From Planctomycetota bacterium (lineage in GTDB: Bacteria > Planctomycetota > B15-G4 > SIAN01), in the NCBI GenBank assembly GCA_028289345.1, contig JANQQL010000018.1, forward strand, positions 86,030-150,029: 64,000 nt of DNA. The letters run 5' to 3'. Shown here one piece after another: positions 6,006-41,013 of this stretch. Positions within the stretch are counted from its first letter, which is position 1. Each line of letters opens with the position of its first letter. The notes below the pieces were generated by a model. It was not told where the DNA came from. It saw only the letters and a list, made by a program, of their open reading frames with translations, and ran no database searches. The position numbers were made by a program, and so were the translations under genes.

Positions 6006-6028
6006 ACCTCTCCACTTCCCTCTCGGGA

Positions 6029-6916
6029 ATGTTGTTCTTGGTGGTGTCCACCTTCCCGGCTTGTGCCGAGGACGAATCCGCCGCGGCCTCCCACGACGAG
6101 TCCGATTTCCTGCGATTCGTTCGCCACGCGGACGATCACGCCACTTTGGAAACCTCGGTGGCGACCTACGTCGATGAGAACAACCGAAGGGTGGACTTGG
6201 TCGGTGCCGTGCACGTGGCGGACACCTCGTACTACGAGACCCTGAACCTGCTGTTCGGCGGCTACGACGCGGTGCTTTACGAACTGGTCGCCGACGCGGA
6301 CACCCGTCCCACTCCAGGCCAAGGCGGGGACTCCATGGTGAGCGTCTTTCAACGCGCCATGAAAGACACCCTCGATCTGGACTTTCAGCTGGATGCCATC
6401 GACTATCACGCCAAGAACTTCGTGCATGCCGACCTGGATCCCGCGACGTTCGTGCGCTTGCAAGAAGAGTCGGGAGAGAGCCTGATCAGCCTCATGCTGC
6501 AGTCGATGATGAGCGAGTTCTCGCGCACCGTCGAGAATCCCGAAGAATCCACGGCTCAATCCCTGTCGTGGCTGTTGGCACTCTTCTCCAAGAACCGGGC
6601 CTTCTCCTTGAAGTTCATCCTGGGCCAGCAGTTCGAAGACATGGAGCGGTTGGTCGCCGGCTTCGAACGCAACCTACAAGGAGAGGAGTCGGTGCTGCTC
6701 ATCAAGCGAAACAATGCCTGCCTGAAAGTCTTGGAAGATCAGCTCACCGAAGGCAAGAAGCGCGTCGCCATCTTCTATGGTGCGGCCCACCTTCCCGACC
6801 TCGAGCAACGCTTGATCGATGAGTTCGGGTTCGCCAAGACCCGCGAGACCTGGCTTCGGGCCTGGAACATCCAGCGGGAGCAGCTGGAGAAAGAAGCTCC
6901 GACGACCGACGAGTAG
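6029..6916 (+). CDS. TraB/GumN family protein
   Basis: Motifs VDLVGAVHVADTSYY and AIFYGAAHL are characteristic of the TraB/GumN (PrgY-like) family. An N-terminal hydrophobic segment is present. An alternative GTG start at 6002 would overlap the MFS stop. Confidence 0.65.
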   Translation: MLFLVVSTFPACAEDESAAASHDESDFLRFVRHADDHATLETSVATYVDENNRRVDLVGAVHVADTSYYETLNLLFGGYDAVLYELVADADTRPTPGQGGDSMVSVFQRAMKDTLDLDFQLDAIDYHAKNFVHADLDPATFVRLQEESGESLISLMLQSMMSEFSRTVENPEESTAQSLSWLLALFSKNRAFSLKFILGQQFEDMERLVAGFERNLQGEESVLLIKRNNACLKVLEDQLTEGKKRVAIFYGAAHLPDLEQRLIDEFGFAKTRETWLRAWNIQREQLEKEAPTTDE

Positions 6917-6963
6917 GACTTCGGACGGGAAAAGAACCCAACGTCCCCTCGACTCGTGAGGCC

Positions 6964-8487: not shown

Positions 8488-8689
8488 GTTTGCACTTTCC
8501 GGGTGCCCGAGGCACTCTCCACTTCTTGTTCCGGTTCCCTCTACCCCACCCACGATAGGGGCCCGGACCGGTTCTCTCTAGCCCGGATCGTTCATGGAGG
8601 CCTGGTGCGGCCGCCGGGGAGATTCCTCCGCGTCCCGGAGAAAGGGGAGGGACCGCCCCCTTCCCTCTCGACGAAAGGTCGGCGAGTGC

Positions 8690-10426: not shown

Positions 10427-10698
10427 GATCGACTTCCCAGATGAGTGAAACAGGGAGAACGGCACTGCGCAACGGGCAGTTGGTCGTCACCCCAGGGGCA
10501 CGGACAAACGGCATCTTCCTTAGCTTGAATTCCATGGAACGGTGGGGATGCAGAGCCCAAAGCAGCTTCCTCTGCGTCGATGGGAAACGAGTTCCCGATC
10601 TTGTTGCTCGGAATCCAACCGTACCGTCCAGGGAACGCGTTTCGGGGGTTGCTGTGAGGGACTGTTATGCTCCTTGACGACAGCCTCGTTTCCTTCCA

Positions 10699-13710: not shown

Positions 13711-14179
13711 AGTCCGTGTAGTCGGTGTGCTCCAGCACTTTGTCTCCGTCGATGCGAAGCACCATGACAAGAGACATGTTCACTTCAAAATCTTCCCCGG
13801 GACGTCCGAACAGATCTCCCACCATGCGGTAGCCGAATGCTCCCCGCGTGACCACGTATCCTCCCGAAGCGAACTGCTCCTCCACGTCCAGGTGGCACTC
13901 GATCAAGCCTTGGGTCTCCTGCTTCAGCCGCTGCAGGATCTTTTCGCCGCCGGTCTCAGGAGTCCCTCGGGCGCCGATCTCTTTCGAGGTCGGATCGCAC
14001 CAAACCGATTCCTCGGTGAAGAACGGAGCGAGAGCTTCCTGGTCCAGGGACAAATAAGCTTCGATGTAGCGATTGGCGATGTCGATTGCGGACTCCGGGG
14101 AGCGAGGGGCGGGACTCGCCTGCCCGAGGCACCACAGCCCAGCCACCACCATGACAAGGGTTCGAATGGGTCTCATTGC
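13670..14179 (-). CDS. SnoaL-like / NTF2-like domain protein, secreted
   Basis: Signal peptide MRPIRTLVMVVAGLWCLG. An NTF2-fold pattern of about 150 aa. Start chosen at the internal Met that begins the signal peptide. Confidence 0.5.
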   Translation of the reverse strand, partial: AMRPIRTLVMVVAGLWCLGQASPAPRSPESAIDIANRYIEAYLSLDQEALAPFFTEESVWCDPTSKEIGARGTPETGGEKILQRLKQETQGLIECHLDVEEQFASGGYVVTRGAFGYRMVGDLFGRPGEDFEVNMSLVMVLRIDGDKVLEHTDYTDFSDYREQIRRQLR

Positions 14180-25821: not shown

Positions 25822-26141
25822 GGCGACGACGCGGCACTCCGACGTGAACTCGTGGACCCCTCCTGACGCAGATCACGTTAGGTAGGCGGTCCGAGCCGGT
25901 CAAGAATGCGTAGGACGGGGAGCGATGCCTGGGTGACCCCCTCCTGTCAGGAAAACAGTCCCATGAACGGCTCCGGGCAGCAGGGGTTGATCTTCGGAGG
26001 AAACGGAATCAAGCCCTTGTGATTCGAACAGCAGACAATCTCTGTCGCCCGGCCGCACCTCGGTCGACGGACGCGAATCCGCCCCCGACGGCTGTCAACT
26101 CTGTGCCAGGGATCCGCGGGCTCCTCCTTCGGATGGCTCCG

Positions 26142-27263
26142 CTACTGTCCCGCGTACATCCAAATCGCCGATGGGCGGCCCAAGTACTTCTCTCCGCCGG
26201 CATCGAAATGAACCGGCTGCATCACGTATGGGAGGAATGACAGCTCGGGAAAATCGGGAACGTTGATCGGCGGGACGGACATCGTTCCCGTCGCCGGGAT
26301 GACCCCGACTCGGGAATTCAAGAAGGAGGAAAGATCAATCGCGAAGACCCCTCGGAACTTCCGAAACGGTCCGAATCCAGCTTCCACGCTCCGCGGCAAC
26401 AGGACCACGTCACCGGGAGTCCCCTGAAACTCGAGTGCGAGGGTGTTGGTCCCGTAGACCACGGGACCGTCGACGACCAGCGACCGAGCCTCTCCTTCGA
26501 AGAACTCGACCACTCCGTTTGGGTCGTGGATCGAAACAGAACCCGTCGATCCCGAGACGATGGCGCAATCCAGAACCTGACCAGAGTTTCCTTCCGGACC
26601 AACCCACAGTCCGAACCCCGAGAGAAACGAACGTCCTCCCTCGAAGCGACAACCGGACGCAAACAGGAAACTGCTGTCATTCACCACGACCCCATGACCT
26701 CCGAATCCCCCGGAAGGATGAGCGACCGATCCCCCCTCGAATTCACAGTCATAGGCGGCGACCCGCGAGTTTTGGACCGAGAGCCCTGTCTCGCCCGTTG
26801 TGGTGCCAGTCCCAGAGCACCCCACGAGAACCACTTGATCCGAGTTCAAAACGGAGAACGAACCAAAGTCGAAAGTGCAGTCCTCGATCCACACCAAGCC
26901 TTCACAATCCCCGATGAAGATGCCGGTGGACTGCTGAAACTCGAGGCCGCGAATGATCAACTGTTCGTCTGCAGGAATCCCTGAGACGTACACTTCCACC
27001 GGCTTCACCACCGGAGTGGTGCCGCGCTTGGCAAAGATCCCCACTCCCTTCGTGATCGTGCTCAACCAGAAGTCGTCAATGGTGTCGTAGATCCCGTGCT
27101 TGACCAACACCATGTCACCGGCTTCTGCGGTCACAATGGCCTCATTGAGTGTGGGTAGGTCTCCGGGTCCCCCATTGTCATCGACCACAAGGATGTTGCC
27201 TTGCCCCGACAATGGCGCGGCAAAGAGGCTCATCAGAATCGGAACGAGTCGAGCGTTGACCAT
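26142..27263 (-). CDS. Secreted right-handed parallel beta-helix repeat protein
   Basis: Signal peptide MVNARLVPILMSLFAAPLSGQG. Repeated G-x-G/CxFEGG segments consistent with a pectin-lyase-like fold. Confidence 0.55.
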   Translation of the reverse strand: MVNARLVPILMSLFAAPLSGQGNILVVDDNGGPGDLPTLNEAIVTAEAGDMVLVKHGIYDTIDDFWLSTITKGVGIFAKRGTTPVVKPVEVYVSGIPADEQLIIRGLEFQQSTGIFIGDCEGLVWIEDCTFDFGSFSVLNSDQVVLVGCSGTGTTTGETGLSVQNSRVAAYDCEFEGGSVAHPSGGFGGHGVVVNDSSFLFASGCRFEGGRSFLSGFGLWVGPEGNSGQVLDCAIVSGSTGSVSIHDPNGVVEFFEGEARSLVVDGPVVYGTNTLALEFQGTPGDVVLLPRSVEAGFGPFRKFRGVFAIDLSSFLNSRVGVIPATGTMSVPPINVPDFPELSFLPYVMQPVHFDAGGEKYLGRPSAIWMYAGQ

Positions 27264-27746
27264 TGATCACACCTCCTCAAGGAGATCGCCTCACGAATTC
27301 GGAAACACTGCCGCCATCCTTCGACGGTCATCACCGTGCCTCGACTGTCCCCCAGCGCCCGAACAGGGATCATAGTCGGACCGAATTCCCCCGCAAGCAA
27401 TGAGCCACCGCGATCGCGCACATTCCAGGAGAATGAAACCCGAGGAGAGTCCGAACATCCCACGAATTCACCACCAATCCCCTCATGGAACATCGACGGA
27501 GACGAAAGTCGTTCGAAACCGATGGCATGAATGCGCCGCGGAGATCGACTGCCAGAAATCGCCCGGCGCCGCCACCGGACATGGTCCCGATTCCGCGATT
27601 GCCATTCGCGAGAGAACCAGACAACGCACAGCGGCCCTGCCAAAGTCGGCTTCCCTCCGCTCCAACCTCGGCCTAGACAATGCGGGCATCAAGACTTGAT
27701 CTCATTGTCCGGACCCGTTGTGATGGCTCTCCTCACGCACCGCAAA

Positions 27747-27823
27747 GCGCCCGTAGCTCAGCTGGATAGAGCAGCGGATTTCTAATCCGCTGGTCGCAGG
27801 TTCGAGTCCTGCCGGGCGTGCCA
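27747..27823 (+). tRNA. tRNA-Arg (anticodon TCT)
   Basis: GCGCCCGTAGCTCAGCTGGATAGAGCAGCGGATTTCTAATCCGCTGGTCGCAGGTTCGAGTCCTGCCGGGCGTGCCA folds as a cloverleaf with anticodon loop UUUCUAA, a T-loop TTCGAGT and encoded CCA. Confidence 0.85.
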
Positions 27824-27854: not shown

Positions 27855-28808
27855 TCATCGCCTCAGCTGGATCGGCTCCTCGGTCTCTCGATGGAACTGG
27901 ATGCGATTGTTCTTCTGGTCGATCGTCACCTCGAACTGCTCCATGACGCGGCTACCGATGTTTGCGGCCTGATAGAGTTCGGTGAAGGTGATCCTCGGTG
28001 TGGCGATCACGTGGCGGCCTAGCTTCAGATCCTCGCGAAGTGTCGCGGCCAGGATCGGGATGACGTTGAACTGGGTGCGGGCCTCGCCGACCTTGGCCGG
28101 CTCGCCGTCCAGGGGAAGCTTGTCGGCCAACGACTGTGGCACCATGATCGCGCCCATGTTTCGGGCGTCCACGTGGGCGCGGACGGTCTTGCCGCCAAGG
28201 GTCCACTCGATCGTCGGAACCGCCTCCTCGGCATCCATCGCGAAAATCTCTTCCCCATCGGGTTCAGGCAAGGCCTGACGACTGATCCGGACCTCCTGTC
28301 CGGGGTAATCGAGGGTGAAGGTGAGGCCGTTGAACAATCCGATGCCGAGGATCCCGTCGATGGGTTCGCTCCCCAGCGAACCCCGGTTGTAGTCGCCGGA
28401 GATCGACTGCAGGTCAACGAATTCGCTATCGCCAATCCAAAGCGACGGCACTTCGTAGACGGCTCGGGTCGCCATGTTGCGGCCGGTGCCATCGGAAACG
28501 GTGATCTCGTCGATGGCGTTCAGCGCCAAGTCAAGCGCGAGGTCGGTGCTCACGGAAAGCTGGCCGGAAGCTCCGGTGTCGATCCCAAAGCGGTAGGGAC
28601 CATCCTCGCCGATCATGACCTCGACGACCGGAAGGTGAAGCTGGGACTCCATCCTCACCTTGACCCCGTCGTCCGGGAGGTCGACCTCGGCGGGATGGGG
28701 CCGAACAGCCCCCAGACCTTGCTCCGTGCGGCTCTCCTGCGGCTGCCCTCGAGCTGGGGCGGCCAACCCAAAGACAACAACGAGAAGGACGGCGATCTTC
28801 GAAATCAT
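27855..28808 (-). CDS. Retropepsin-like aspartyl protease (clan AA), secreted
   Basis: Signal peptide MISKIAVLLVVVFGLAAPARG. Catalytic FGIDTGAS (D-T/S-G-A) motif. Start moved to the Met that begins the signal peptide. Confidence 0.7.
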   Translation of the reverse strand: MISKIAVLLVVVFGLAAPARGQPQESRTEQGLGAVRPHPAEVDLPDDGVKVRMESQLHLPVVEVMIGEDGPYRFGIDTGASGQLSVSTDLALDLALNAIDEITVSDGTGRNMATRAVYEVPSLWIGDSEFVDLQSISGDYNRGSLGSEPIDGILGIGLFNGLTFTLDYPGQEVRISRQALPEPDGEEIFAMDAEEAVPTIEWTLGGKTVRAHVDARNMGAIMVPQSLADKLPLDGEPAKVGEARTQFNVIPILAATLREDLKLGRHVIATPRITFTELYQAANIGSRVMEQFEVTIDQKNNRIQFHRETEEPIQLRR

Positions 28809-28913
28809 TGGGGACTCCTTTCGCCCTGACAGTACGAATCGTACCATTGTGTGTTGGAGTCGATTCGACCTTCTCTGAAGGAGTCTCGCTCATTGCCCGA
28901 GCCAGGAGCCTCC

Positions 28914-29450
28914 GTGGACACACTAACCGAGTTGGACCACATGATCCTGGGCGTCGTCGGGCTCTACGGCCCCTGCACCGGTTACCGGGTGCGAAGGGTG
29001 TTCCTCGAATCGCTCTCGCCCCACTGGAGCGGCTCCGCGGGCGCGATCTATCCAGCACTCGAACGCCTGACACGACTCGAGTTGGTCGACAGCAAGGATG
29101 ACCACACAACCCGGCGACAAGGCAAGTTGCTCTCGCTGTCACAAGCGGGAAAGAAAGCGGTGGCGACGTGGCTCAAGCCCCCGCTCGATGCCGGAGCGCT
29201 CCTCGACCTCGACCCGCTTCGCACCCGAGTTCGCGTGCTGGGCCTGGTGCCCCCGGCCCAACGCCAGCGCTTCGTCGCTTCCGCGCTCGAACAGCTGGCC
29301 GCCCTCGAGCAGGAGACCCGGTCGATGCTGCGGGACTCCGAGGCCGGGGACGACCCCTATCACACACTGGTTTGCAAGGGCGCGCTGAAGTCCCTTCAAG
29401 CACGCCGGCGTTGGCTGGCCGAGGTCGCCGCGGAGGTGGCCTCGAAGTAG
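28914..29450 (+). CDS. PadR family transcriptional regulator
   Basis: LTELDHMILGVVGLYGPCTGYRV is the PadR winged-helix signature. GTG start at 28914 with AGGAG 5 nt upstream. Divergent from the protease gene. Confidence 0.65.
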   Translation: MDTLTELDHMILGVVGLYGPCTGYRVRRVFLESLSPHWSGSAGAIYPALERLTRLELVDSKDDHTTRRQGKLLSLSQAGKKAVATWLKPPLDAGALLDLDPLRTRVRVLGLVPPAQRQRFVASALEQLAALEQETRSMLRDSEAGDDPYHTLVCKGALKSLQARRRWLAEVAAEVASK

Positions 29451-29930
29451 TCGGCAGGGAACCGCGCCGGCACAAGAGCCGTCCCATTCCGCGAACGAAG
29501 ATGTCCCGGACCACAGGTCAATCAGCGCCGCGAGCACGACAGAGTGATGGGCTGGATACTCACACCCTCGGGCAACGAGCCCCCCCGCCGCATCTTGGGA
29601 CCGTTGCACCGACTTCAACTTCGTGCTGCCATGGGAAGAACCCATAAGCTGGCTTTGGCGACCCTGAGTCATCCGTTCTCCGCCCGGACTCAATGCGAGA
29701 GTTGAACCCTACCCAGGCGCGAACCGTGCGGGTTAAGCACACACACTCTTTGGTTCAATGGTGTGGTCAGACAGTCAGGCTTGTCCTTCGCGGAGCGCGC
29801 GTTTCCACCTCCATCGGAGCCGGTAGCCTTTGGGGGCATTCATCCGTGGTCCCCAGCGCGAACTCTGGAAAGATCACTTCACGGGTAACCCGCACTTCAC
29901 ACCCAGGGCAACGTCTGAGAGACGAGAGCA

Positions 29931-30866
29931 TTGGAATCATCCCTCCTTGTATTGGTCCATGTGCTCTCGAGTGGGCTCTTTGGCATTTTTCAGCATCAGG
30001 TCGGCCGGAATCGGTGTGACCGCCTGTTGTTCATGCAGGTGGTCTCCCTAGTAACGTGCCTCGTCAACAGCACTCTCTTTGTTCGGTGGGCTGGAACGAA
30101 CGGAGCGCGGTGGTCGTTTCCACTGGAAAACCTGCGGTTAACCTTCGTGATGTTGCTGCTCGGAGGTCTTTTCTTTGCCCTGTTTTTCTCGCGCCTCTTA
30201 GTGAAAGAGTTTCTTCCCTCGTTCGTTTTTGCGCCTCTCTACCGACTGCAAATGCCAATCGTAGTCCTTGTCGCCATCTTCTACTTGCATGAGGAGGCAT
30301 CAGTCATTCATACGATTGGACTCTTCTGCGCATTCGTCCCTCTCATCCTTGTTGCCACTCCTCCTCGCGTTCAGACAAATCAGCGTCGATTCAACCATCG
30401 ATCAAAGCCACCTCGGTACGGACCCAGGTGGATTCGGGGTGCCGCACTCATGATGGTGGTCGTTGCGCTCGCGGCTTGCCTCCAACTCTCCACAAAAGTG
30501 CTGACCGCTCACGATCTATTTGCAGTGCCTCCTCTGACGTATGCAATGCTGCTGAATATCGGAACATTGTTCGTTGGCCTGATTCTTCTCATTTCGAGAA
30601 CAATTCGAAGCAGAAGCATCCGCGAACCTCGTCTGGCGATCGTCCTTGGCCTAGCAGCAGGCCTTGTCAACGCCGTGACTTTGCTCAGTTTGGCAGTGTA
30701 TCTCGTCGACGGGCGAGCAAGTGTGATCTACCCTGCCGGCGCGATGTCCCTATTCATCCCAATGATCGCCTTCGGCTATCTGGGCACCGAGCCACGGCCG
30801 TCCCCGGTGCAAATTCTGTCCATTACTCTCGCCACGGCGGCAACCCTACTACTGATGGGCTCTTGA
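29931..30866 (+). CDS. EamA/DMT-like polytopic membrane protein (within low-GC island)
   Basis: About 10 TM segments with internal duplication. The C-terminal LGTEPRPSPVQILSITLATAATLLLMG resembles the EamA repeat end. TTG start at 29931, with an alternative ATG at 30033. Lower GC than its surroundings. Confidence 0.45.
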   Translation: MESSLLVLVHVLSSGLFGIFQHQVGRNRCDRLLFMQVVSLVTCLVNSTLFVRWAGTNGARWSFPLENLRLTFVMLLLGGLFFALFFSRLLVKEFLPSFVFAPLYRLQMPIVVLVAIFYLHEEASVIHTIGLFCAFVPLILVATPPRVQTNQRRFNHRSKPPRYGPRWIRGAALMMVVVALAACLQLSTKVLTAHDLFAVPPLTYAMLLNIGTLFVGLILLISRTIRSRSIREPRLAIVLGLAAGLVNAVTLLSLAVYLVDGRASVIYPAGAMSLFIPMIAFGYLGTEPRPSPVQILSITLATAATLLLMGS

Positions 30867-30881
30867 TGAAGGAGTGCCTGA

Positions 30882-33380
30882 ATGATCCAGCGATGGTCGG
30901 CTGCGATGTACTTATTTGCCCATCTGGGTACGCAAACGCCAGAGGCTGGGCCACTGGTCACGATCAGCGTACCCGATGACCAATCTGATTGGAGTGAGCT
31001 GAACAGATACCTCAATGAAGAACTTCGCACACTGAATGCGTCGATCCGCATCAAGTTCACAAAGCGTGACATCGACTCGGCGCTCCATGAATTGGCGAAT
31101 CCGAGTGACAACAACGTCGGTGCCTTACTCCCACCGTTTCGCTATGTAGTCGCCGACCTCGTCGTGAATGACCTCGAGCTCGTCGCACGCATCCGACGTG
31201 CAGGACGTTTCGTCGTACCCCAGAGTGACTGGGACAACAACAAGCGTCCCGACTCTGACCCAGAGTATGCCGAGTACAACGCACCAGAGCCTCTTGATCA
31301 CTACCGGAGCCTGGTGGTGATGCACCGCAACTCAGGAGTGTGGCCACCTCCCCTCCCGCGTGACCTTTTCCGTGCACAGTCGATTCAAGAACGAAACCTC
31401 GACAAGGTAACCATCTCTTTTTCCGGTTACCGATCGACTTCTGAGTTCGTTTACCCCTTCGCTCATATCACGCGAAAGGGCTGGCGCGATCGCATCGTAG
31501 AAAGTCCGCGACGTACGGCCGGCCGACGTGAGGACGCCTGGAAGTTAAAGATGGTGTCCGTGGATAGCGCTCACTACGGAGACAAACGGGAAATCGCGGA
31601 ACGCAAGCAGCTCACGGAGAGTCTCGCATCGGAAACCGGCGACTTTCAACTTTTCTGTACAAGCGACCATAAGTTCTACGCCTCGTATCCGAACGAAAAA
31701 GCTCGCCATGCGAGATTTGAGGAGGTGTACCGCTCCCCTCCGATTCCCTTTGATGCACTGGTTGTTCGAAAATCCGCCCTCGGGCTCGTGGAACTTCAGA
31801 AGCTCAGGCGAGCTTTCCTCTCGACCCGCGACATGGCCCCGAAAGAGCGAGCAGAGTGTTTTCCATGGAGTCCTACTGAAGATGACAACCAGTCATTTCT
31901 GCGCTCTCCGGATGTCCACGATTTCGTCGAAGCCGATGATGCGGAGTACGACAAGATTCGCCAGGAAGCCGCGGTAGCATTTGGTGGAGCAATCGTGCGA
32001 GTTGCGGTCGCGAAGCAAGTGCACCGCAGCGAATCCCGAGACATGATGTTCTTTCGCCAGTGGATGAAGGACGTTCTGAAAGCACAACCGGATTCACCGG
32101 TGTTCCTTGACTTCGTGTACTACGACAGTTTCGACGAGATCGCGACAGATCTCAAAGACGGCAGAGTGCACCTCGGAGAGCTCAACGTAACTCGAGCCGC
32201 CACTCTCCTGGGACGTGAGGAGGGTGTACTGCTAGGACGCTCCGTCTTTGGCGGCGAGGACTTCTATCGATTCGTAATCGTGACGGCTGAGCCGAACAAG
32301 AAGACGGTCGATAGCATTCAAACGGCCGGCCCTTTCGCGATCACCTCGCGGGCATCTGGCTCCGGCTTCGTGTATCCCGTCGAATACCTTCAATCCAGAG
32401 GCCGAAGCCCGAAAGAACGAATTGAAGTCGGAAATGCTGACAACGTCCTCGACGCAGTTCTACGCTATGCCAACGAAAGCCAAGATCCAAAGTCTGCACT
32501 TTACGGCTTCATGGCCGACTTCGAATTCGAGAAAATCAGGAGACGCTGGCCCGAAAAAGCCATCGAAAAGATCGGAACCATTGAAGTTCATGAAGAGCAA
32601 GCGAGAATTCCCAACGCAATGCTCATTGCCTCAAAGGGCGCGTTCCCGATGGTCGGCACTTGGTTTCAGCGCTTGTCAACCGGGCACGAAAAGGATGAGA
32701 GCTCTGATGGGCGAAACGCAACTGCCGTTGAACAACCGCTGTCCACGAAGACCACTGACATCCTACGCGATGCAATCATCGCGAACCTGTCGTCGGAGGC
32801 ATTCGGAGGCTACCGACGGGCGACGCAAGATGACGTGGATGAGCTCAGCGAGCTCTACTGGAAAACTGCGAAGCGACCAGTCGCCATTATCGTCGGTGTC
32901 CTAGCCGTCGGAATCATCGCCTCCACATTGTGCGTCATCTGGGTCTATCGACGGGGCGTCTCATCTTCGAGCGAAGATCAGCGGGTGGTTTCAATTCAGA
33001 GCATTTGGGACGTATTGAAAGGCGGTGTCCCAGACGATCGAATGGCCCGAGATCTCATTTGCATCGGTTTGCAGATTTTTGGGCAACTGAAAGACGACGA
33101 CGGGAAGCTCAAGAAAGTCTTCGGTTCTCCTGCAGCGCTTCGGAAAGAGCTGGGCGACGCCCTGCTAGCCGTACTGGTCCGCCATCAAAGTGATCGCACC
33201 TTGTCTGACGAGACATACTACTACACTCATCTAGACAGACTGGACAGGGTGGTCAGGAAAGCCACGTCAGAGATCGATAACTACCTCAGTCGTGTTGATC
33301 GACCCGAGACTAGCGAATCGGCCGACTGGCTCTCAAAATGGGTGCGGACGCTGGATACCGTCAAGAAGCTAATTGACTGA
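30882..33380 (+). CDS. Large hypothetical protein: two tandem PhnD/SsuA-like (type-2 periplasmic-binding-fold) domains, single TM helix, unknown ~170-aa C-terminal domain
   Basis: AAGGAG 8 nt upstream of ATG 30882, and coupled to the upstream gene. Motifs TISFSGYRSTSEFVYPF and FAITSRASGSGFVYPVEYLQSRG resemble the PhnD substrate-binding fold. TM helix VAIIVGVLAVGIIASTLCVIWVY. No kinase, GGDEF or other known output domain. GC ~52-55%. Confidence 0.6.
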   Translation: MIQRWSAAMYLFAHLGTQTPEAGPLVTISVPDDQSDWSELNRYLNEELRTLNASIRIKFTKRDIDSALHELANPSDNNVGALLPPFRYVVADLVVNDLELVARIRRAGRFVVPQSDWDNNKRPDSDPEYAEYNAPEPLDHYRSLVVMHRNSGVWPPPLPRDLFRAQSIQERNLDKVTISFSGYRSTSEFVYPFAHITRKGWRDRIVESPRRTAGRREDAWKLKMVSVDSAHYGDKREIAERKQLTESLASETGDFQLFCTSDHKFYASYPNEKARHARFEEVYRSPPIPFDALVVRKSALGLVELQKLRRAFLSTRDMAPKERAECFPWSPTEDDNQSFLRSPDVHDFVEADDAEYDKIRQEAAVAFGGAIVRVAVAKQVHRSESRDMMFFRQWMKDVLKAQPDSPVFLDFVYYDSFDEIATDLKDGRVHLGELNVTRAATLLGREEGVLLGRSVFGGEDFYRFVIVTAEPNKKTVDSIQTAGPFAITSRASGSGFVYPVEYLQSRGRSPKERIEVGNADNVLDAVLRYANESQDPKSALYGFMADFEFEKIRRRWPEKAIEKIGTIEVHEEQARIPNAMLIASKGAFPMVGTWFQRLSTGHEKDESSDGRNATAVEQPLSTKTTDILRDAIIANLSSEAFGGYRRATQDDVDELSELYWKTAKRPVAIIVGVLAVGIIASTLCVIWVYRRGVSSSSEDQRVVSIQSIWDVLKGGVPDDRMARDLICIGLQIFGQLKDDDGKLKKVFGSPAALRKELGDALLAVLVRHQSDRTLSDETYYYTHLDRLDRVVRKATSEIDNYLSRVDRPETSESADWLSKWVRTLDTVKKLID

Positions 33381-33416
33381 CGACCTGCGTGATGGTCCCT
33401 CAAACATGCGAGGACC

Positions 33417-33803
33417 TTGGCGAACCGGCTCCTCAGGCTGATGAGCCGGCGCGACCAAGAACGATCCCGACAAGCTTTCTGGCTGAACGGGTGCCTGAGG
33501 CAGTCAGAGCGCGGCCCTTGGTGGAGTGGCTCATTGCCTGATTCGACAAGGCGTGGTCTACGGCTTGTCGAAGAAGAGGTCCGGCGAGCGCAATCTCGCC
33601 TCGCCCCGTCGGATCTGCAGCTCTCCGAGATCCACCATGGTGGCCAGCCGAGCAGTCCTTCTGCCTTGCTCGCCAGCCCTTGCTCGAGGCGTAGGTGTCC
33701 AAGAAGTCCGCAGGTCCGCGACGTCTCTGGATGGGAAGACTCGACTGGCGACCAAGTCGTGGATGTCGATGACCTGCTCGAGCTGCTTGCCGCTTGGAGC
33801 TAG
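33417..33803 (+). pseudogene. Possible gene remnant ending in a dockerin/EF-hand-like motif (GDQVVDVDDLLELLAAWS)
   Basis: The last ~25 codons match the D-x-D-G-x-V-x-V-x-DLL-x-LL-x-W-G C-terminal module common in planctomycete secreted proteins. No credible upstream domain, and it sits at the right edge of the low-GC island. Confidence 0.25.
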
Positions 33804-33834
33804 GCTTGGCGAGCTCGCGGTCATCCTAACTTGC

Positions 33835-35211
33835 CTAACACTCGGTCACGGACACCGCCAACCCCCCCTGGGACGTCTCCTTGTACCGCGCATGCATGTC
33901 CCGTCCGGTGTTGCGCATGGTGCGGATGACTTTGTCGAGAGAGATGTGGTGGGCCCCGTCCCCTCGCAGCGCCATGCGGGCCGCGTTGATGGCCTTGATG
34001 GAGCCCATGGCATTGCGCTCGATGCAGGGGATTTGCACGAGCCCTTTGACGGGATCGCAGGTCAAACCGAGGTTGTGCTCCATGCCGATCTCCGCCGCGT
34101 TCTCCACCTGCTCCGGAGTTCCGCCCAAGACTTCGGCCAATCCGGCGGCGGCCATGGAGCAAGCGACCCCAACTTCTCCCTGACAGCCAACCTCCGCCCC
34201 GGAAATCGAGGCATTCTCTTTGTACAGAACGCCGATCGCGCCCGCGGTCAGGAGGAACCGTGCGATGCCATCTTCGCTCGCGCTGGGACAGAATCGGTCG
34301 TAGTAGTGCATCACCGCCGGCACGATTCCCGCGGCCCCATTGGTTGGCGCCGTGACGACGCGACCGCCGGCCGCGTTCTCTTCATTCACAGCCAGGGCGT
34401 ACAGATTGACCCAGTCGACAATGGTCAACGGATCTCCCAGGGATCGCTCGAGCTGGCGAGAGAGCTGTTCGTGCAACTGGGAGGCGCGCCGCGGGACGCT
34501 CAGACCGCCAGGCAGGACCCCCTCCTGCTCACAACCACGACGCACGCATGACTGCATGGCGCGCCAGATCTCGGCAAGGCCCGCCCGGACTTCTTCGGAG
34601 CTGCGCCTTGCCAACTCGTTCGCCATCTGGACATCGGAGATTCGGCACTGATCGGACTGGGCCGCCGCGAGCAGCTCGGCGCCGCTTCGAAACGGATACG
34701 GAACGCTCGTCGAGTCCGCGGTCAGATGATCTTCCGCCGCCTGGTCCTCGTCGACGACGAATCCCCCGCCGATCGAATAGTAGGTCCGTTGCCCGAGCAA
34801 CGATCCTGCTTCGTAGGCTTGGAAACGCAGCCCATTGACGTGGTAGGGTAAGACTTCCTGCTTGTGCAGAACCAAATCTGTTTGGGGGTCGAACGCGATC
34901 TCGTAGCGAGCATTGAGGTTCAACCGCTTGTGAGCGGAAATCTCCGCGACTCGGCGCTCGAGGTGATCGGGCTCGACCGTCTCCGGGGCCGCTCCTTCAA
35001 GTCCGAGCATCAAGGCCCGATCCGTCCCATGCCCGTGGCCAGTGAGCGCCAAGGACCCGAACAAGTGAACCTCGACTCGCGTGACCCGGGAAAGCCTCTG
35101 TTGCCGCACGAGTCGGTCGGCGAAACGGTGCGCCGCACGCATCGGTCCCACCGTGTGAGAACTCGAAGGCCCGATGCCGATGCGAAAGAGATCGAAAACG
35201 CTGAGAGCCAC
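33835..35211 (-). CDS. sdaA: L-serine ammonia-lyase (L-serine dehydratase), single-chain
   Basis: [22 protein letters not shown] matches the SdaA N-terminus. Conserved C-terminal Fe-S region. Start placed at GTG 35211, where homology begins. The track ORF begins at TTG 35298. Confidence 0.8.
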
Positions 35212-35398
35212 GACCCAACCCCGGAGAGAAACGAGGGGCGCCAAGCGCCGCAATTTTCCCTGTGATGGTTCCTGTCGGAGCGAACCATCGTAGGACAATG
35301 CGCGCTCATGAGGCGAAGATTCTTAGGAGGCCCCAACTCTGAAAAAGTTTGCCTAGCCAGAGGATGACAAGACGGGCCTCCAGATCCCCCACGGGACC

Positions 35399-37003
35399 TC
35401 AGAACAAAGCCGTCTCACTCTCTTCTGTGGTCGGCTCGTCCTCGAACTCCATCACCACACTGTCGGCGGTACTCGCCTCCTCTCCCGAAGGAGAGAACGT
35501 GTGGCCAGCATCGCCACGAACTCGTCGGACCAGCGAGTCCAGATCAAAGATCATCGTGGTCGATTCGAAAGAGCCATCGTCACCCGCAGTCACGTACTCT
35601 TTGATGTCGCACTTGAGTTCGCTGTTCGTGGGCGGCCGGAGCATCGATGGCACGTTCTGCTTCTGGTGAGCGTCGATGTGGATCAAACCGTCCACTCGGT
35701 CCACCATGAAGCCGAATACGTCTTTCCCCGAATCCACGATCAAGACCTGGGTCGACGCTTCATTCTCAAAGGGCTCGAGACCGTAGGTCCTCCTCAAATC
35801 GACGACCGAAACCAGTTTGCCGCGAAGGTTGAACACCCCACGAATGTGCTCCGGAGTTCCTGGCGTGTGGGTCAAGCTCTCGGGGAATTCGATGATTTCG
35901 CGGACGTCCAGTACCGGCAAGGCGGCCCGGTGCCCGAGTGAGAAGGTGATGTACGAGAAGCGTTCGCCGCTCCCGGTGGAACGAGTCTCTACTTCGACGA
36001 GGGACTCACCTTGATACAGGGCCTGATGGCTCTGCGTGACACCGACAATGCCCTCATCTTCGAGGATGCGTCCATGATCCAGGAGCAACACCTCCGAGCC
36101 ATCTGACGGAACAATGCACCCTCGAACCAGCGACTCCTTTTCCTGGTTGTAGTCCGGGATCGGCAACATCTGTTGATCGGTGTAGGCCAAGATACTGGTG
36201 ACCTCGTCGACCACAAGCCCAAATCGATCCGATCCGTGGTGCATGACGATGACTTTCTTCGAGTCAAGCCCCTCGTCTTCGTCGGAGCGATCGCCGTCAA
36301 GCATCTTCGAAAGTCGCAGCAGCGGCATCACGACGCCGCGCAAGGTCGTCATTCCCAAACACAGTTCGTCCGCAAGACTCGATTCTTGGTAGTCCGGCAT
36401 CGGAATGATCTCGCTGACCGCTGTCATTTCCAACGCAAGAAGATGATCCTCTACCTGAAAAGTGATGCATTGTTTGCGGATGCCTCCGGGAGAGCCCCCT
36501 TTGTCCGAAACTGGGTTCTTGGGATCCACAATGCGCGGGAGATTCTCGATGCGGGCCAATCGCCGGGCGTGGATGACGTCAACCAGCCGATTGCCGTCAT
36601 CCAACCGCAAAACTCCGGCAACCACCCGACGCCCGGGAGTCACAGGCTCCGAGTCGTCGGCCTCGTAGGAGAATGATTTCAGCGCGGAGTCGTCCACTCG
36701 CACGATTTCCTTCGTGCTGTCAAAGACCAGTCCGTAGCGGACCCCTTGGTCCTCCAGAATGGCAACTTTCCGATTCTCTTCCTGGTCCGCGTGGATCCCC
36801 AAGAGCTCTCCGACGTCGAGAATCGGGATGATCATTCCACGCAAGTTGAAGACACCGAGCATGAACGGCGGGGAAAGGGGAACAGGCACCACATCTTCTG
36901 GGGCGTTGACCACCTCCAAGATCTCGTTGACATCGATGCCGATCTCGGTCGTTCCCAGACCGAATGTTCCAAAGAGCCTGTTTCCGAGAGCCTTCTCTGT
37001 CAT
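35399..37003 (-). CDS. Chemotaxis protein with three tandem CheW-like domains
   Basis: Three repeats of the CheW pattern (...VVNAPEDVVPVPLSPPFMLGVFNLRGMIIPILD..., ...PMPDYQESSLADELCLGMTTLRGVVMPLL..., ...PESLTHTPGTPEHIRGVFNLRGKLVSVVDLR...). 534 aa. Confidence 0.8.
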   Translation of the reverse strand: MTEKALGNRLFGTFGLGTTEIGIDVNEILEVVNAPEDVVPVPLSPPFMLGVFNLRGMIIPILDVGELLGIHADQEENRKVAILEDQGVRYGLVFDSTKEIVRVDDSALKSFSYEADDSEPVTPGRRVVAGVLRLDDGNRLVDVIHARRLARIENLPRIVDPKNPVSDKGGSPGGIRKQCITFQVEDHLLALEMTAVSEIIPMPDYQESSLADELCLGMTTLRGVVMPLLRLSKMLDGDRSDEDEGLDSKKVIVMHHGSDRFGLVVDEVTSILAYTDQQMLPIPDYNQEKESLVRGCIVPSDGSEVLLLDHGRILEDEGIVGVTQSHQALYQGESLVEVETRSTGSGERFSYITFSLGHRAALPVLDVREIIEFPESLTHTPGTPEHIRGVFNLRGKLVSVVDLRRTYGLEPFENEASTQVLIVDSGKDVFGFMVDRVDGLIHIDAHQKQNVPSMLRPPTNSELKCDIKEYVTAGDDGSFESTTMIFDLDSLVRRVRGDAGHTFSPSGEEASTADSVVMEFEDEPTTEESETALF

Positions 37004-37006
37004 GAC

Positions 37007-37480
37007 CTACTCTCTGACGATCTTCTGGACTTCGAACTCACCGGTGTGACCGTGGATGAGCATCTGGCGCCCGAAGTGATCTCCGCATTCCTGGGAGATG
37101 ATCCTGATGCCCAGTTTCCGCAACGCGGCCCGGGCGGCACGGACATTGCCCTCGCCCACCTTGCCTCCGGGCGCCGCATCTCCGGGGCGCATCATCGACG
37201 CACCTCCGGCGACGACAGCTTTCACCGCGCGGAGTTCTGAGGGAGGGATTCCCATGCGACGGACCAACTCGGGGACGCCCCGGTCCACGTACTTGGCTTC
37301 GGCTTCCTCAGCCTTTTCACCGCTTGATTGGGGTAGCAGACAGTGCGCCAGTCCGTAGACCTCTCGGTCCTTCCAGAGGAGACCGATGCCCACGCAAGAG
37401 CCGAGGATGGTTTGCAGAGTCTCGCCCGCGGAGGCAACGCCGATGCGCCCCATGTGAACCCGCACGATCACCGAGTCCAT
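37007..37480 (-). CDS. cheD: Chemoreceptor glutamine deamidase CheD
   Basis: ILGSCVGIGL catalytic Cys region and overall CheD-like 157 aa. Confidence 0.8.
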   Translation of the reverse strand: MDSVIVRVHMGRIGVASAGETLQTILGSCVGIGLLWKDREVYGLAHCLLPQSSGEKAEEAEAKYVDRGVPELVRRMGIPPSELRAVKAVVAGGASMMRPGDAAPGGKVGEGNVRAARAALRKLGIRIISQECGDHFGRQMLIHGHTGEFEVQKIVRE

Positions 37481-38307
37481 CAGTCGGACCCTTTGCTGGT
37501 GTAAACGAGCGGTTGAATGAACTCCATTCGGGTATCCAAGCGAGCCAGAGATTCGGACTCGCCGATCACCAGGATGCCCCCCGGATTCAGGGATCGTCGC
37601 ACCGCTTCCACCACGGATTCTTGATCGGTCTGATCAAAGTAAATGAGAACGTTTCGAAGCAGCGCAATGTCGAACCGCTCTCGCGGAGTCCCCTGGCGAA
37701 GAAGATTGTGCTGGCGAAAGGTGATGTTCGCGCGAATCGTGGGAGCGACTTCCATCACTTCTTCATCCACCGGACGCAGGTAGTTGCGAAGGAATCCAGG
37801 ACTGGCTTTGCTCAACGCCTCGAGGGTTCGCCCCTGGTACCGGCCCGCCTCGGCCATCGCGAGGACCCCGGCAGAAATGTCCGTGGCGAGGACCGAAAAC
37901 TGAAACCCGCCGTGAGTTCGGCGGAACTCCTCGCCATACATGGCCAGGGTGTAGGCCTCTTCGCCCGTCGAGCATGCCGCGGACCAGATCCGCAATGGAC
38001 GGCTCGGCTCCCTCCTCCAAAACTCGGGAAGGAACTCACTCGCAAAGTAGCTCCAAACCCGCGGAGTCCGGTGAAAGTAGGTTTCATGGGTAGTGACCAA
38101 GTCGATGAACTGGTCCAACTCTCCTCGATCCGACTCGATCAGGTCCCAGTAGTCCGACCACTCAGAGATCTCTCTTGCCCGGAGTCGCCGCTCGAGACGT
38201 CCATGGATCAACGCCCGCTTCTTGGCGCTCATCCGGACCCCCGTGTGCTGGTACACCAACGCCAAGGCTTGCTTTAGGTCCGCATCGCACAACTCGAGAG
38301 TCGTCAT
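37480..38307 (-). CDS. cheR: Chemotaxis protein methyltransferase CheR
   Basis: IWSAACSTGEEAYTLA and VIGESE SAM-MTase motifs. Stop overlaps the cheD start (ATGA). Confidence 0.85.
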   Translation of the reverse strand: MTTLELCDADLKQALALVYQHTGVRMSAKKRALIHGRLERRLRAREISEWSDYWDLIESDRGELDQFIDLVTTHETYFHRTPRVWSYFASEFLPEFWRREPSRPLRIWSAACSTGEEAYTLAMYGEEFRRTHGGFQFSVLATDISAGVLAMAEAGRYQGRTLEALSKASPGFLRNYLRPVDEEVMEVAPTIRANITFRQHNLLRQGTPRERFDIALLRNVLIYFDQTDQESVVEAVRRSLNPGGILVIGESESLARLDTRMEFIQPLVYTSKGSD

Positions 38308-38316
38308 CGGACCGCC

Positions 38317-41013
38317 CTACTCGACCGTCGAACCGGCGAGGTTGGCTTTCAGTTCCTCGGCACCGTCCAGCAGGGCTTTCGTCGATCGAGCGATCGAGTC
38401 ACACGCGCCGGCGGATTTCTCCGTCTCTTCGGCGACATGTTGAATCGCCACGCTCACCTCGGTCGCCGCCGCCTTCTGCTCTTGCGTCGAAAGAGCGATT
38501 TCGGAGATCGCGTTGGTGGTGCGACTCACGCCATCGATGATCTTCTGGAACGCCGTTCCAGCCTCTCGGGAAACCTGGCTTCCGAGCGCCACTCGCTTGG
38601 TCGACTCCGCGATGAGCTTGGAGATCTCATTCGTTGCCTGGGCCGACCGCTCCGCCAGTTTCCGAACCTCGTCCGCGACCACAGAGAAACCGAGTCCATG
38701 CTCGCCGGCTCTCGCCGCCTCGATCGCAGCATTGAAGGCCAACAGATTCGTCTGGGAGGCGATCTCGTTGATCACTTTCACGATCTCTGCAATTTCCTCG
38801 GAGGACTTGTTGATCAACTCCATCGACTCGATCGACTGGTTGATCAACGACGTCCCCGACTCCCCTTCCGACTGGGTCGACTTGGCAAGGTTGTCCGCGT
38901 TCTGAGTATTCTGGGCGATCGCCTGGATCGCTTGGGTCAGCTCTTCGACCGACGCGCTCATTTCTTCCGTCGTGGCACCCAAGGCTTGAGCACCCTGGGC
39001 CACACTCGAGGACCGTGCCGCAATGTCCTTGGAGGAATTCGCGACATCGGTGGCGAGTCCGCTGACCGTGTCCGCCATTTCCTGCCGTTCTCGAACCTCG
39101 CGGGTGATGTCGGTGGCAAACTTGACCACTTTGCATGGGTTGCCATTGGCATCGAAGATCGGGTTGTAGTTGGCCTGAATCCAAACGGGGTCACCGTTCT
39201 TGGCCACTCTTCGGAAGCGGTCAGAGATGGATTCGCCGGAAGCCAATCGGTCCCAGAAGGCGCGGTACTCACTGGACCCCACAAAGTCCTTGTCGCAGAA
39301 CATCCGGTGGTGCTTGCCGACGATTTCGTCCAGAGAGTAACCCAGTGCGTTGAGGAAGTTTTCATTTGCAGTGACGACTTTGCCATCGAGTTCGAACTCG
39401 ATCACTGCTTGAGCGCGGCTGATTCCGTCCAGCTTCCCTTCGAAATCTGCGTTCTTCAGTTTGCGTTCCGTCACGTCGGACGCGAACTTCACCACCTTGA
39501 TCGGCCGCCCATTCATGTCGAAGATCGGATTGTACGTCGCCTGGATCCAGATCTCGCGTCCCCCCTTGCCGACACGCTTGTACTCCCCGGAATGGAACTC
39601 CCCTTTGGCGAGCGACTTCCAGAATTCCGCGTACTCCTCCGAGCGAGCTAGCTCGTCCTCGCAGAACATGCGGTGATGACGACCTCGGATTTCATCGAGG
39701 GTGTATCCCAGGGCCCGAAGGAAGTTGTCGTTCGCGTGAAGAATATTCCCTTCCAGGTCGAACTCGATCACGGCCTGGGCTCTTCCAATCGCACTCACCT
39801 TGCCCTCGAACTCAGCCCCTTGAAGTTTCGCCGCAGTGATGTCGGAAGCGAACTTCACCACCTTGTAAGGCCGACCGTTCATGTCTACGACAGGGTTGTA
39901 GGAGGCATGGATCCAGACGTCCCGGCCATCCTTGGCAACTCGGCGGTACTCACCGCTGTCGTATTCGCCGCGAGCCAGCTTGTCCCAGAATGCCGCATAG
40001 GCACTGGAGCTCGCGTACTCTTCGTCGCAGAAAATCCGGTGATGACGTCCCTGAACCTCCTCCAGCGAATAGCCCAGGGTTTGGAGGAAATTGTCGTTGG
40101 CGGAGAGAATGGTCCCGTCGAGATTGAACTCAATCACCGCCTGAGATCGGTTCAACGCAGACAGTTTGCTGTCGATCTCGGCGCTCGCCAGCTTTGCCTG
40201 GGTGATCTCCGACGCAAACTTGACGACCTTCACTGGGTTCCCACCGAGATCAAGAACGGGGTTGTAGGTCGCCTGGATCCAGACCTCGGTTCCGTCCTTG
40301 GCTCGGCGTGAGAACTCTCCGGAGGCGAACTCTCCCCGCGCCAGCGAGGCCCAGAACTCCTTGTACTCCGCGGACTTGGCATACTCGGGTTCGCAGAAGA
40401 TCCGATGGTGCTTCCCTCGGACCTCCTCCAGCCGGTAGCCAAGCGTGTCGAGAAAGTTCTCATTGGCGTCCAAGACGTGCCCGCTGAGATCAAACTCAAT
40501 CACCGCCTGGGATCGGCCGATGGCCTCGAGCTTTCCCTGACTCTCCGCTGCTTGGAGCTTCGCCTCGGTCACATCCGTCGCAAATTTGACGATCCGACAC
40601 GGCTTGCCGTGATCATCGAGGATCGGGTTGTAGGAAGCGTTGATCCAGATCTCTCGCCCCCCTTTCCCGAAGCGCATGTACTCCCCTTGGTCGAACTCCC
40701 CTCGGCCCAGCTTCTGCCAGAACTCACGGTACTCAGCGCTTGCCACGTAGCCCGGCTCACAGAAGATCCGGTGATGCTTGCCAACGATCTCTTCCAGTGA
40801 GTAGCCGACCGCGTTGAGGAAGTTGTTGTTCGCGTGGAGAATGGTCCCGTTGGGATCGAACTCGATGATTGCCTGGACTCGATTCAGAGCTTCCACGTAG
40901 GCCGAGTCGTCGGCAGCAGCGTTTTCCGGCCTCGCGCCATTCATTGCCTCGACGTAGCCGTTCGTGTCCAGTGATTTCGAAACTTCGTCCCGGTTGTTCT
41001 TCTTGGTTGCCAT
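38317..41013 (-). CDS. Cytoplasmic methyl-accepting chemotaxis protein with five tandem PAS domains
   Basis: Five ~123-aa repeats beginning (R)(S/A)QAVIEFD...HHR(I/M)FC..., followed by a C-terminal MCP signalling domain ([33 protein letters not shown]). No TM segments. Confidence 0.85.
39040..40884 (-). repeat. Five tandem ~369-bp coding repeats (PAS-domain units) inside the MCP gene
   Basis: Recurrent nucleotide blocks of the form cttcaccaccttg...ccgttcatgtc...gggttgta..gc.tggatccaga at a ~369-bp period, corresponding to the five PAS units. Confidence 0.6.

Follow-up and report, generated by a model that had tools for sequence, protein, structure and literature searches.

Until 2025, TRAP and TTT systems were the only ones in which a secondary transporter was known to work with a binding protein; TAXI-GltS, itself inferred from gene linkage, translational coupling and domain fusions, became the third class (PMC12344293). 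In the TRAP (DctPQM), TTT (TctABC) and TAXI-GltS systems (PMC12344293), a binding protein is coupled, genetically and translationally, to a protein of the secondary-transporter type, and no ATPase gene is involved. Here, we describe a pair of genes, A and B, that is alike in these respects and that is located on a 64,000-nucleotide (nt) stretch of DNA from a Planctomycetota bacterium (contig JANQQL010000018.1 of assembly GCA_028289345.1), referred to below as the window. Gene A encodes a putative membrane protein related to the drug/metabolite transporter (DMT) superfamily, and gene B a membrane-anchored protein with two PhnD-type periplasmic binding lobes in tandem. We tentatively favour the view, which in our estimate falls a little short of an even chance, that A and B constitute a secondary transporter that depends on a binding protein and carries a phosph(on)ate-like anion, A being the putative translocator.

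Our proposal rests on the same types of evidence as that of TAXI-GltS, namely conserved linkage, overlapping codons and domain fusions. The components themselves are different. Unlike the binding proteins of TRAP, TTT and TAXI-GltS systems, B belongs to the PhnD family, which is normally associated with ATP-binding cassette (ABC) transporters, and it is a tandem protein with its own C-terminal transmembrane (TM) anchor. The membrane partner also differs from DctQM, TctAB and GltS in being DMT/EamA-like, and no Pfam match to the component families of TRAP or TTT systems was found in A, B or their homologues. The parts come from known superfamilies (DMT, and PhnD-family binding proteins of class II); their combination matches no described system, and we found no literature on it.

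Conserved linkage of genes A and B

In a word-indexed search of 5.8 billion clusters, B matched itself and one protein at 33% identity, and A matched only itself. An exhaustive phmmer search of 1.84 billion representatives retrieved only 19 relatives of B at E <= 0.001; an initial annotation of this DNA had proposed to check the phyletic distribution of both proteins. A tblastn search of plasmids with B gave no match, and scans of genome, metagenome and viral collections yielded no relatives of B or of the PadR protein encoded upstream of gene A. The A-B pair is a very rare and undescribed family.

In spite of this rarity, the arrangement of the pair could be compared between loci. A counterpart of gene A is present directly upstream of B, and on the same strand, at all 10 loci for which upstream DNA or gene calls are available (Table 1); these include the window itself and the contig encoding the B homologue P0007, for which there are gene calls only and the identity of A is deduced from its position. 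The flanking genes of the pair, on the other hand, differ at every locus. Because the order A-then-B has been kept while the flanking genes differ, we consider this strong evidence that A and B act together, and the functional coupling of the two genes, as judged from their sequences, is supported. The initial annotation had suggested coupling from a ribosome-binding site between the two open reading frames (ORFs); this site is present, and the gap between the stop codon of gene A and the start of gene B is 15 nt.

At one metagenomic locus, L006, gene A has been split by a DDE-type insertion sequence (IS), and the two gene A fragments are exactly complementary in their profile positions. The region L006:5380-10589 consists of the N-terminal fragment of A (5380-6105), a DDE_Tnp_1_4 transposase gene on the minus strand (6291-7622), the C-terminal fragment of A (7706-7993) and an intact gene B (8001-10589), and a Y1 transposase gene lies near the module. 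The idea that this module has been inserted into a 5'-nucleotidase gene was rejected, as the flanking 5'-nucleotidase-like ORFs overlap in their Pfam model positions and are not two halves of one gene. PadR was likewise considered as a component of the module and rejected: its gene has native guanine-plus-cytosine (GC) content in the window, and PadR is not linked to the pair at other loci. At L001, a tRNA gene (13877-13960) is located about 1.4 kb downstream of the module; the two are separated by a radical-SAM gene, which lies on the opposite strand.

Protein B is an anchored tandem binding protein

The initial annotation described B as an 832-amino acid (aa) protein of unknown function. Its size is confirmed, but B is not featureless: it is an anchored tandem binding protein of the PhnD type. 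The Pfam family Phosphonate-bd matches the second lobe in two stretches with 77 bits, above the curated cut-off of 27. The first lobe was aligned to PhnD of Escherichia coli by means of the gene B family profile, and in this alignment the near-invariant segments R/K-S-T-S (aa 184-187) and P-I-P-F-D (aa 287-291) correspond to STSGFLVP and LIPGDP of PhnD. Lobe 2 of the window copy contains S-G-S-G at aa 492-495, where the family consensus is S-S-S-G. Both the STS motif of lobe 1 and the SSSG motif of lobe 2 are conserved family-wide, and the STS/SSSG and IPxD segments are presumably equivalent to the phosphonate-contacting Ser/Thr and Asp residues of PhnD.

An AlphaFold2 model of B, built on a family alignment of 16 sequences, has two alpha/beta lobes (mean predicted local distance difference test score, pLDDT, 78.9; predicted template-modelling score, pTM, 0.71). 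The model also contains an N-terminal hydrophobic helix, the small juxtamembrane element, a TM helix (aa 666-691) and a helical cytoplasmic tail. In a Foldseek comparison with the Protein Data Bank (PDB), single-lobe matches were obtained to HtxB, PtxB, AioX (6esk) and XAC2383 (5ub7), with target TM-scores of 0.64-0.76. The model, the Foldseek matches and the alignment agree in giving B the class II two-subdomain fold together with a Ser/Thr-rich anion motif. B thus resembles PhnD, PtxB and HtxB in its PF12974 match, in the structure of its lobes and in its motifs; unlike these proteins, it has two lobes per chain, a TM anchor and a cytoplasmic tail. It also falls outside the subfamily of ABC phosphate/phosphite/phosphonate binding proteins defined by TIGR01098 (29.1 bits versus a cut-off of 112), and no ABC permease or ATPase genes of the phnC/phnE type are adjacent to the pair in the window or at any related locus.

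Other known proteins share parts of this architecture. Like B, GlnPQ has two tandem binding domains that are connected by a flexible tether to, or beside, a translocator; the domains of GlnPQ are fused to the membrane domain of an ATP-powered ABC transporter, whereas the lobes of B are on a separate single-pass protein encoded beside the DMT-like A (PMC8025302). The best full-length Foldseek matches of B are the bilobal transferrins and lactoferrins (E ~1e-13), with TM-scores of only 0.21-0.34 and identities of 9-12%. In these proteins, too, a single chain contains a tandem pair of class II binding lobes; B differs from them in being bacterial and membrane-anchored, it has no match to Pfam Transferrin, and the resemblance is one of architecture only. 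The partners of AioX, ArxX and XAC2383 are histidine kinases or c-di-GMP enzymes, whereas the partner of B is a DMT-like protein with 10 predicted TM segments. AioX and ArxX (PMC5908839) and XAC2383 (5ub7) have the same fold as B, and in these, as in signalling mediated by binding proteins in general (PMC8050422), the binding protein acts on a non-ABC membrane partner. A Pfam search of the window proteins revealed no kinase (HisKA/HATPase), GGDEF or EAL domains.

Gene A encodes a divergent DMT-like protein

We favour the TTG codon at position 29931 as the start of gene A, since homologues share the N-terminal LLVLVHVLSSGLF; in public gene calls the start is placed later, giving proteins of 301 and 277 aa. 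Alignment-averaged hydropathy of the gene A family predicts 10 hydrophobic segments, the fifth of which is followed by a long, basic central loop; this corresponds to the 5+5 arrangement of about 10 TM helices of DMT proteins. Pfam EamA (PF00892) matches four of five gene A homologues (best E 9e-9); the copy at L008 (28.5 bits) and the N-terminal fragment at L006 (29.9 bits) score above the cut-off of 28.2. The EamA similarity is confined to the first half, and the gene A family profile gave no match among PDB sequences. Invariant or near-invariant polar residues (H10, T42, R105, Q185 and N247) are located in or beside the hydrophobic segments. We consider that the sequence of A is that of a very divergent member of the DMT superfamily, or at least of a relative, and the earlier label of an EamA-like 10-TM protein can be retained at the superfamily level. 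A shares with EamA/DMT permeases such as YddG a length of about 300 aa, the 10 hydrophobic segments and, in its homologues, the EamA matches; unlike YddG, it is very divergent, has a predicted opposite orientation and is always paired with an anchored binding protein.

Table 1. Positions of the features in the window, and arrangement of gene A homologues relative to gene B at related loci
Feature	Position	Strand	Remarks
tRNA-Arg(TCT)	27747..27823		2.1 kb from gene A, two native-composition genes between
Spacer, padR stop to gene A	29451..29930 (480 nt)	+	promoter presumably here
Compositionally atypical tract	29700..33400 (approximate)		GC 0.54-0.56 versus window mean 0.61
Gene A	29931..30866	+	311 aa, putative DMT/EamA superfamily type, 10 hydrophobic segments
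Ribosome-binding site AAGGAG	30869..30874	+	7 nt before gene B ATG
Gene B	30882..33380 (stop codon included)	+	832 aa, anchored tandem periplasmic-binding protein
B aa 1-22, putative signal peptide (N-terminal hydrophobic helix)	30882..30947	+	weak here, clear in homologues
B aa 23-350, binding lobe 1, PhnD-like	30948..31931	+	motif alignment to E. coli PhnD
B aa 365-592, binding lobe 2	31974..32657	+	Pfam Phosphonate-bd PF12974 match at aa 409-586
B aa 593-620, linker	32658..32741	+	low model confidence (aa 597-616), poorly conserved
B aa 621-664, small juxtamembrane element	32742..32873	+	conserved G-F-x-G-Y; A-F-G-G-Y in window copy
B aa 665-691, single TM helix	32874..32954	+	followed by basic RR
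B aa 692-832, cytoplasmic up-down four-helix bundle	32955..33377	+	generic, no assignable family
Right spacer	33381..33834 (454 nt)		native GC 0.60-0.66; outside atypical tract
88-codon ORF	33558..33824	minus	11 nt after sdaA stop, in right spacer
L001, A homologue upstream of B		same	32% identity, E 2e-39
L003, A homologue upstream of B		same	adjacent gene
L005, A homologue upstream of B		same	adjacent gene
L006, A split by DDE IS, upstream of B		same	profile positions 12-224 (E 7e-39) and 223-303 (E 3e-19)
L007, A homologue upstream of B		same	4-nt overlap
L008, A homologue upstream of B		same	adjacent gene
L010 / L011, A homologue upstream of B		same	4-nt overlap
L013, A homologue upstream of B		same	11-nt overlap; hhalign 98%, E 1.6e-13
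P0007 contig, gene upstream of B		same	4-nt overlap, from gene calls only

A putative binding-protein-dependent transporter

The B homologues P0019 and P0020 form a sister group in which a signal peptide is followed by two canonical Phosphonate-bd domains (E ~1e-52) and a C-terminal TM anchor, without a cytoplasmic tail. At locus L013 (5124-7740; GCA_041476145.1, JBGOSW010000020.1), the gene for P0019 is preceded by an overlapping EamA-like homologue of gene A, and a cytoplasmic domain is absent from both A and B. For P0020, the tail-less form was judged from its own sequence; A and B could both be inspected for P0019 at L013. To judge from these sequences, L013 represents the minimal form of the module, and as this form has no cytoplasmic domain, the core function must lie in the periplasm and the membrane. 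What all members have in common is the DMT-like 10-TM protein together with a secreted double PhnD-type module that is anchored by a single TM helix.

We propose that the tethered lobes of B would bind a periplasmic oxyanion that is phosph(on)ate-like and close on it, that the closed lobes would then dock on the periplasmic face of A, and that A would move the ligand across the membrane. A new class of transporter would result, in which the membrane part is of the DMT type instead of a TRAP, TTT or GltS part, and the cytoplasmic tail of B may have an accessory role, as a regulatory module or adaptor whose form varies with the lineage. The formation of a physical complex by A and B, the nature of the ligand, and the existence and direction of transport are all points that we infer from the sequences, the structural model and the gene context. 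The linker between the lobes and the membrane varies from 0 to 34 aa in homologues, with a mean identity of 12%. Because it is modelled with low confidence, variable in length and poorly conserved, delivery of a ligand seems preferable to rigid signalling: by analogy, a floppy tether would suit docking and delivery, and not the rigid transmission of force. A precedent for the arrangement is provided by GlnPQ, whose tandem binding domains are tethered to the membrane part (PMC8025302).

Several points weigh against this proposal. Firstly, the A protein of the window itself matches EamA with only 17.9 bits (E 0.004), below the cut-off. Secondly, loops 1, 3, 5, 7 and 9 of A contain 19 Lys and Arg residues, versus 4 in loops 2, 4, 6 and 8, and the positive-inside rule therefore predicts that both termini of A are periplasmic. 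In the canonical EamA orientation, for instance that of YddG, the N- and C-termini are cytoplasmic. Thirdly, characterised EamA/DMT proteins are mostly exporters, we know of no binding-protein-dependent DMT transporter, and DMT proteins are not thought to use an elevator mechanism. The authors of the TAXI-GltS study suggested that dependence on a binding protein may need such a mechanism (PMC12344293). Fourthly, at none of the loci examined is the pair linked to catabolic or regulatory genes that would serve a phosphonate-like nutrient, and no riboswitch or linked pathway indicates a ligand, neither in the upstream RNA search nor among the genes of the loci. Finally, two relatives carry TIR domains. 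The B homologue P0009 (L007:8001-10820) has a TIR_2 domain at its C-terminus (E 9e-11), and at L011 (357-2069), one is present at the N-terminus of the A homologue (E 2e-9). A nutrient importer leaves these two independent fusions, both on the cytoplasmic side, unexplained.

A further view of the pair takes A as an EamA-type efflux permease and B as a sensor of a toxic oxyanion, external or periplasmic, such as arsenic or phosphonate antibiotics; B would regulate A instead of supplying it with a substrate for uptake, so that the two would form a ligand-gated exporter or resistance module. This would be in line with the preponderance of exporters among EamA/DMT members, and small, mobile and self-contained cassettes are typical of resistance functions. 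In addition, AioX-type PhnD-like proteins sense arsenic oxyanions (PMC5908839), and AioX (6esk) is among the Foldseek matches of the B lobes. However, resistance genes, of the ars or phn type or any other, are not linked to the pair at the loci examined, the TIR fusions are left unexplained here as well, and there is no known precedent for a DMT exporter regulated by a binding protein. We regard this possibility as very improbable.

The cytoplasmic part and the possibility of a receptor

The cytoplasmic part of the module is swappable: it can be absent, a four-helix bundle, a long helical tail, or a TIR domain on either B or A. A four-helix-bundle tail of about 140 aa is present in the B protein of the window and in P0002, P0004, P0005, P0006, P0012 and P0015, P0014 has a helical tail of 270 aa, and P0007, P0010, P0019 and P0020 have no cytoplasmic tail. 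At L011, B is tail-less, and the A protein contains an extra hydrophobic helix between TIR_2 and the conserved core, which is consistent with the periplasmic termini predicted for A. The TIR domain of P0009 matches that of SARM1 (E 2.6e-6), and a Glu is aligned with the Glu of the SARM1 motif 'WVHKE', which we take to be the catalytic residue E642. No TIR domain was detected in the window proteins by Pfam.

On the one hand, these features might be an indication that the pair is a receptor/effector module, of a conflict or defence type, that senses the periplasm. The double ectodomain of B would then sense an extracytoplasmic molecule, A would be a co-receptor, transducer or pore, and the cytoplasmic domain, be it a four-helix bundle or TIR, would act as output or adaptor, with ligand binding triggering growth arrest, cell death or signalling. 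The TIR_2 domains on B and on A, and the alignment of the P0009 domain with the NADase TIR of SARM1 that includes the catalytic Glu position, speak for this possibility. So do the swappable tails, the patchy and rare distribution, the atypical GC content and the neighbouring mobile elements, all of which are typical of conflict systems, and the fact that the cassette is self-contained, without linked metabolic genes. Moreover, PhnD-like sensors exist, AioX being an example (PMC5908839; reviewed in PMC8050422).

On the other hand, the window copy has neither TIR nor another recognisable effector, only a generic four-helix tail, and the PADLOC-DB v2 models match neither window protein at E <= 0.1; among the relatives, only the TIR parts match, weakly, to ThsB or SAVED-TIR models. 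The minimal relative at L013 lacks any cytoplasmic domain, direct mechanical signalling through B is disfavoured by the floppy linker, the neighbourhood of the pair in the window is not a defence island, and no homologue was found in phage or plasmid collections. On balance, we regard a receptor function as the main alternative to the transporter, but as unlikely.

A more specific form of this idea would be a single-pass system in the style of Toll-like receptors. BvgS-type sensor kinases have two periplasmic Venus-flytrap domains, and Toll-like receptors consist of an ectodomain, one TM helix and a TIR domain. B shares the order of its parts with both, its tandem binding ectodomain being followed by one TM helix and then by a cytoplasmic module, and P0009 ends in a TIR domain as Toll-like receptors do. 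Unlike BvgS, B contains no HisKA/HATPase, and its membrane linker is floppy instead of a continuous helix; unlike Toll-like receptors, the window B has a four-helix bundle in place of TIR, and its 10-TM partner is obligatory. The family would combine a double-PhnD ectodomain, a TM helix and an adaptor or effector with an obligatory DMT-like co-receptor; it would sense a phage, competitor or danger signal with a phosphate-like group in the periplasm and trigger an NAD+-linked or other cytoplasmic response. We give this version a small but not negligible chance. Of all these possibilities, the transporter remains the one that we prefer.

Composition and probable horizontal acquisition of the cassette

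Whether the pair has been acquired is a separate question from what it does: transporter, receptor and exporter functions are all compatible with acquisition. The initial annotation proposed a low-GC island of about 4.4 kb at 29451-33830, between padR and sdaA. The drop in GC is evident in a sliding 500-nt window, in which values of 0.62-0.67 (28,000-29,750) give way to 0.54-0.56 (29,750-33,250) and then to 0.60-0.65 from about 33,400 onwards. The mean GC of the 64-kb window is 0.609, and its three lowest 1-kb bins are those at 30,001-33,000 (0.548-0.555). Positions 29,850-33,300 are the 3.45 kb of lowest GC in the window (0.549 versus 0.609), and the five lowest 3,450-nt windows all start within 29,801-30,001 (GC 0.549, about 3.6 standard deviations (SD) below the mean of such windows). 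In a finer profile, the left border is gradual (about 29,600-29,900), and the right one is sharp, at about 33,400, where gene B ends. Thus, a low-GC tract exists, but it is narrower than first proposed: it measures about 3.7 kb and comprises essentially the two ORFs, and the right spacer has native composition.

Codon usage, for which a check had also been suggested, deviates as well. GC at third codon positions (GC3) is 0.60 in gene A (z = -3.2) and 0.61 in gene B (z = -2.9), versus 0.72 +/- 0.037 in the 33 other ORFs of the window, which places the anomaly of both genes at synonymous sites. An index similar to the codon adaptation index (CAI), derived from the window's own genes, gave 0.580 for gene A (z = -5.05) and 0.636 for gene B (z = -3.18), versus 0.730 +/- 0.030; these are the two lowest values among 35 ORFs. 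The dinucleotide signature of the tract is only moderately unusual, an equal or larger deviation being found in 6 of 108 other chunks.

The composition of the module can also be compared with that of its flanks in other hosts. The GC content of module and flanks is 0.548/0.613 in the window, 0.538/0.600 at L001, 0.539/0.615 at L006 and 0.491/0.538 at L008, so that the module lies 5-7 GC points below its flanks in four unrelated hosts; at L005, L007 and L009, the two are equal. At L008, the module is located among genes for a phage-type integrase, an IS3 transposase and KfrA. Because the GC deficit recurs in four hosts and mobile elements are neighbours at L006 and L008, acquisition is supported, and the suggestion made in the initial annotation gains from the deviation of 3-5 SD in composition and codon usage, from the unrelated contexts and from the presence of the same deficit in three other hosts. 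The low-GC tract most likely represents a self-contained cassette of two genes that reached this genome by horizontal transfer, the acquisition event itself being deduced from these features.

Among the usual characteristics of genomic islands, atypical composition is present, and an integrase or transposase, an insertion next to a tRNA gene and flanking repeats are not. The initial annotation had noted the absence of an integrase, a transposase and a detectable att repeat at the island; the window contains none of these and no IS, the borders have only chance-level direct or inverted repeats, and no repeat of at least 12 nt joins the tRNA gene to the borders. These absences count against acquisition and are consistent with both genes being native, their low GC reflecting amino-acid content (A being a membrane protein) or weak expression. 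The moderate dinucleotide signature and the fact that GC values of 0.57-0.58 are reached elsewhere in the window point in the same direction. However, the deficit is present at synonymous sites (GC3 0.60-0.61 versus 0.72) and not just at codon positions 1 and 2, it is shared by the largely soluble B protein, and the CAI-like values are the two lowest in the window. Furthermore, composition changes sharply at the stop codon of gene B, the cassette recurs in contexts that are unrelated, where it has the same GC offset and lies beside mobile elements, and vertical inheritance in a widespread lineage cannot be reconciled with so extreme a rarity. A native origin is therefore quite unlikely.

Flanking regions

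The flanks of the cassette in the window consist of ordinary chromosomal or housekeeping genes, encoding an Asp-protease, PadR, SdaA, CheW/CheD/CheR, a PAS-rich chemoreceptor, FtsY and a sulfatase, a setting that we count in favour of acquisition. The spacer between padR and gene A contains no sigma-70-like site, terminator or Rfam element or riboswitch that we could find; a scan for promoters and terminators returned two terminator-like sites, both on the wrong strand and fewer than the number expected by chance. The locus was not recovered in pattern scans of one genome per GTDB species, and no close relative is present in the collections searched. Among about 15 billion proteins, the closest SdaA has 68% identity, and the locus that encodes it (L012) has no context in common with the window; named matches come from Lysobacterales such as Luteimonas (65-66%) and from a metagenome-assembled genome of Thermoanaerobaculia (67%).

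On the right-hand side, the initial annotation had seen a gene remnant. This is not substantiated: the 88-codon ORF at this position has native-like GC at the three codon positions (0.63/0.54/0.73) and no significant match to a Pfam family. Instead of a remnant, it could be a native gene of small size that shares a transcript with sdaA. The start of sdaA (33835-35298, minus strand) is ambiguous. The longest ORF, starting with TTG, has 487 aa, and a shorter protein of 435-460 aa is indicated by the Logan gene call and by most homologues (about 460 aa). Further to the right, a chemotaxis cluster (35399-41013, minus strand) encodes a 534-aa protein with three CheW domains, CheD, CheR and an 898-aa chemoreceptor whose five PAS domains are not accompanied by an obvious periplasmic part. 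GC dips a second time, less strongly (0.57-0.60), at 26000-27750, over the gene for a right-handed beta-helix protein of 373 aa (26142-27263, minus strand). This region immediately adjoins the tRNA-Arg(TCT) gene, and it could be a separate, older acquisition at this tRNA.

Implications

If the TIR-containing relatives show the true logic of the family, it would provide a rare example, among bacteria, of a receptor that monitors the periplasm and responds through an immune-type effector. If, more specifically, the comparison with Toll-like receptors were to hold, the pair would represent an immune or conflict system of a new, envelope-sensing class, spread as a mobile cassette of only two genes. 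If, as we prefer, a PhnD-type binding protein is paired with a DMT protein for transport, this would constitute a fourth class of binding-protein-dependent secondary transporters and would provide a direct test of the elevator proposal. The cassette is small (two genes, 3.4 kb) and appears to be self-contained, and it can be tested by expression in another host. The pairing, if true, would assign a function to a so far unannotated family.

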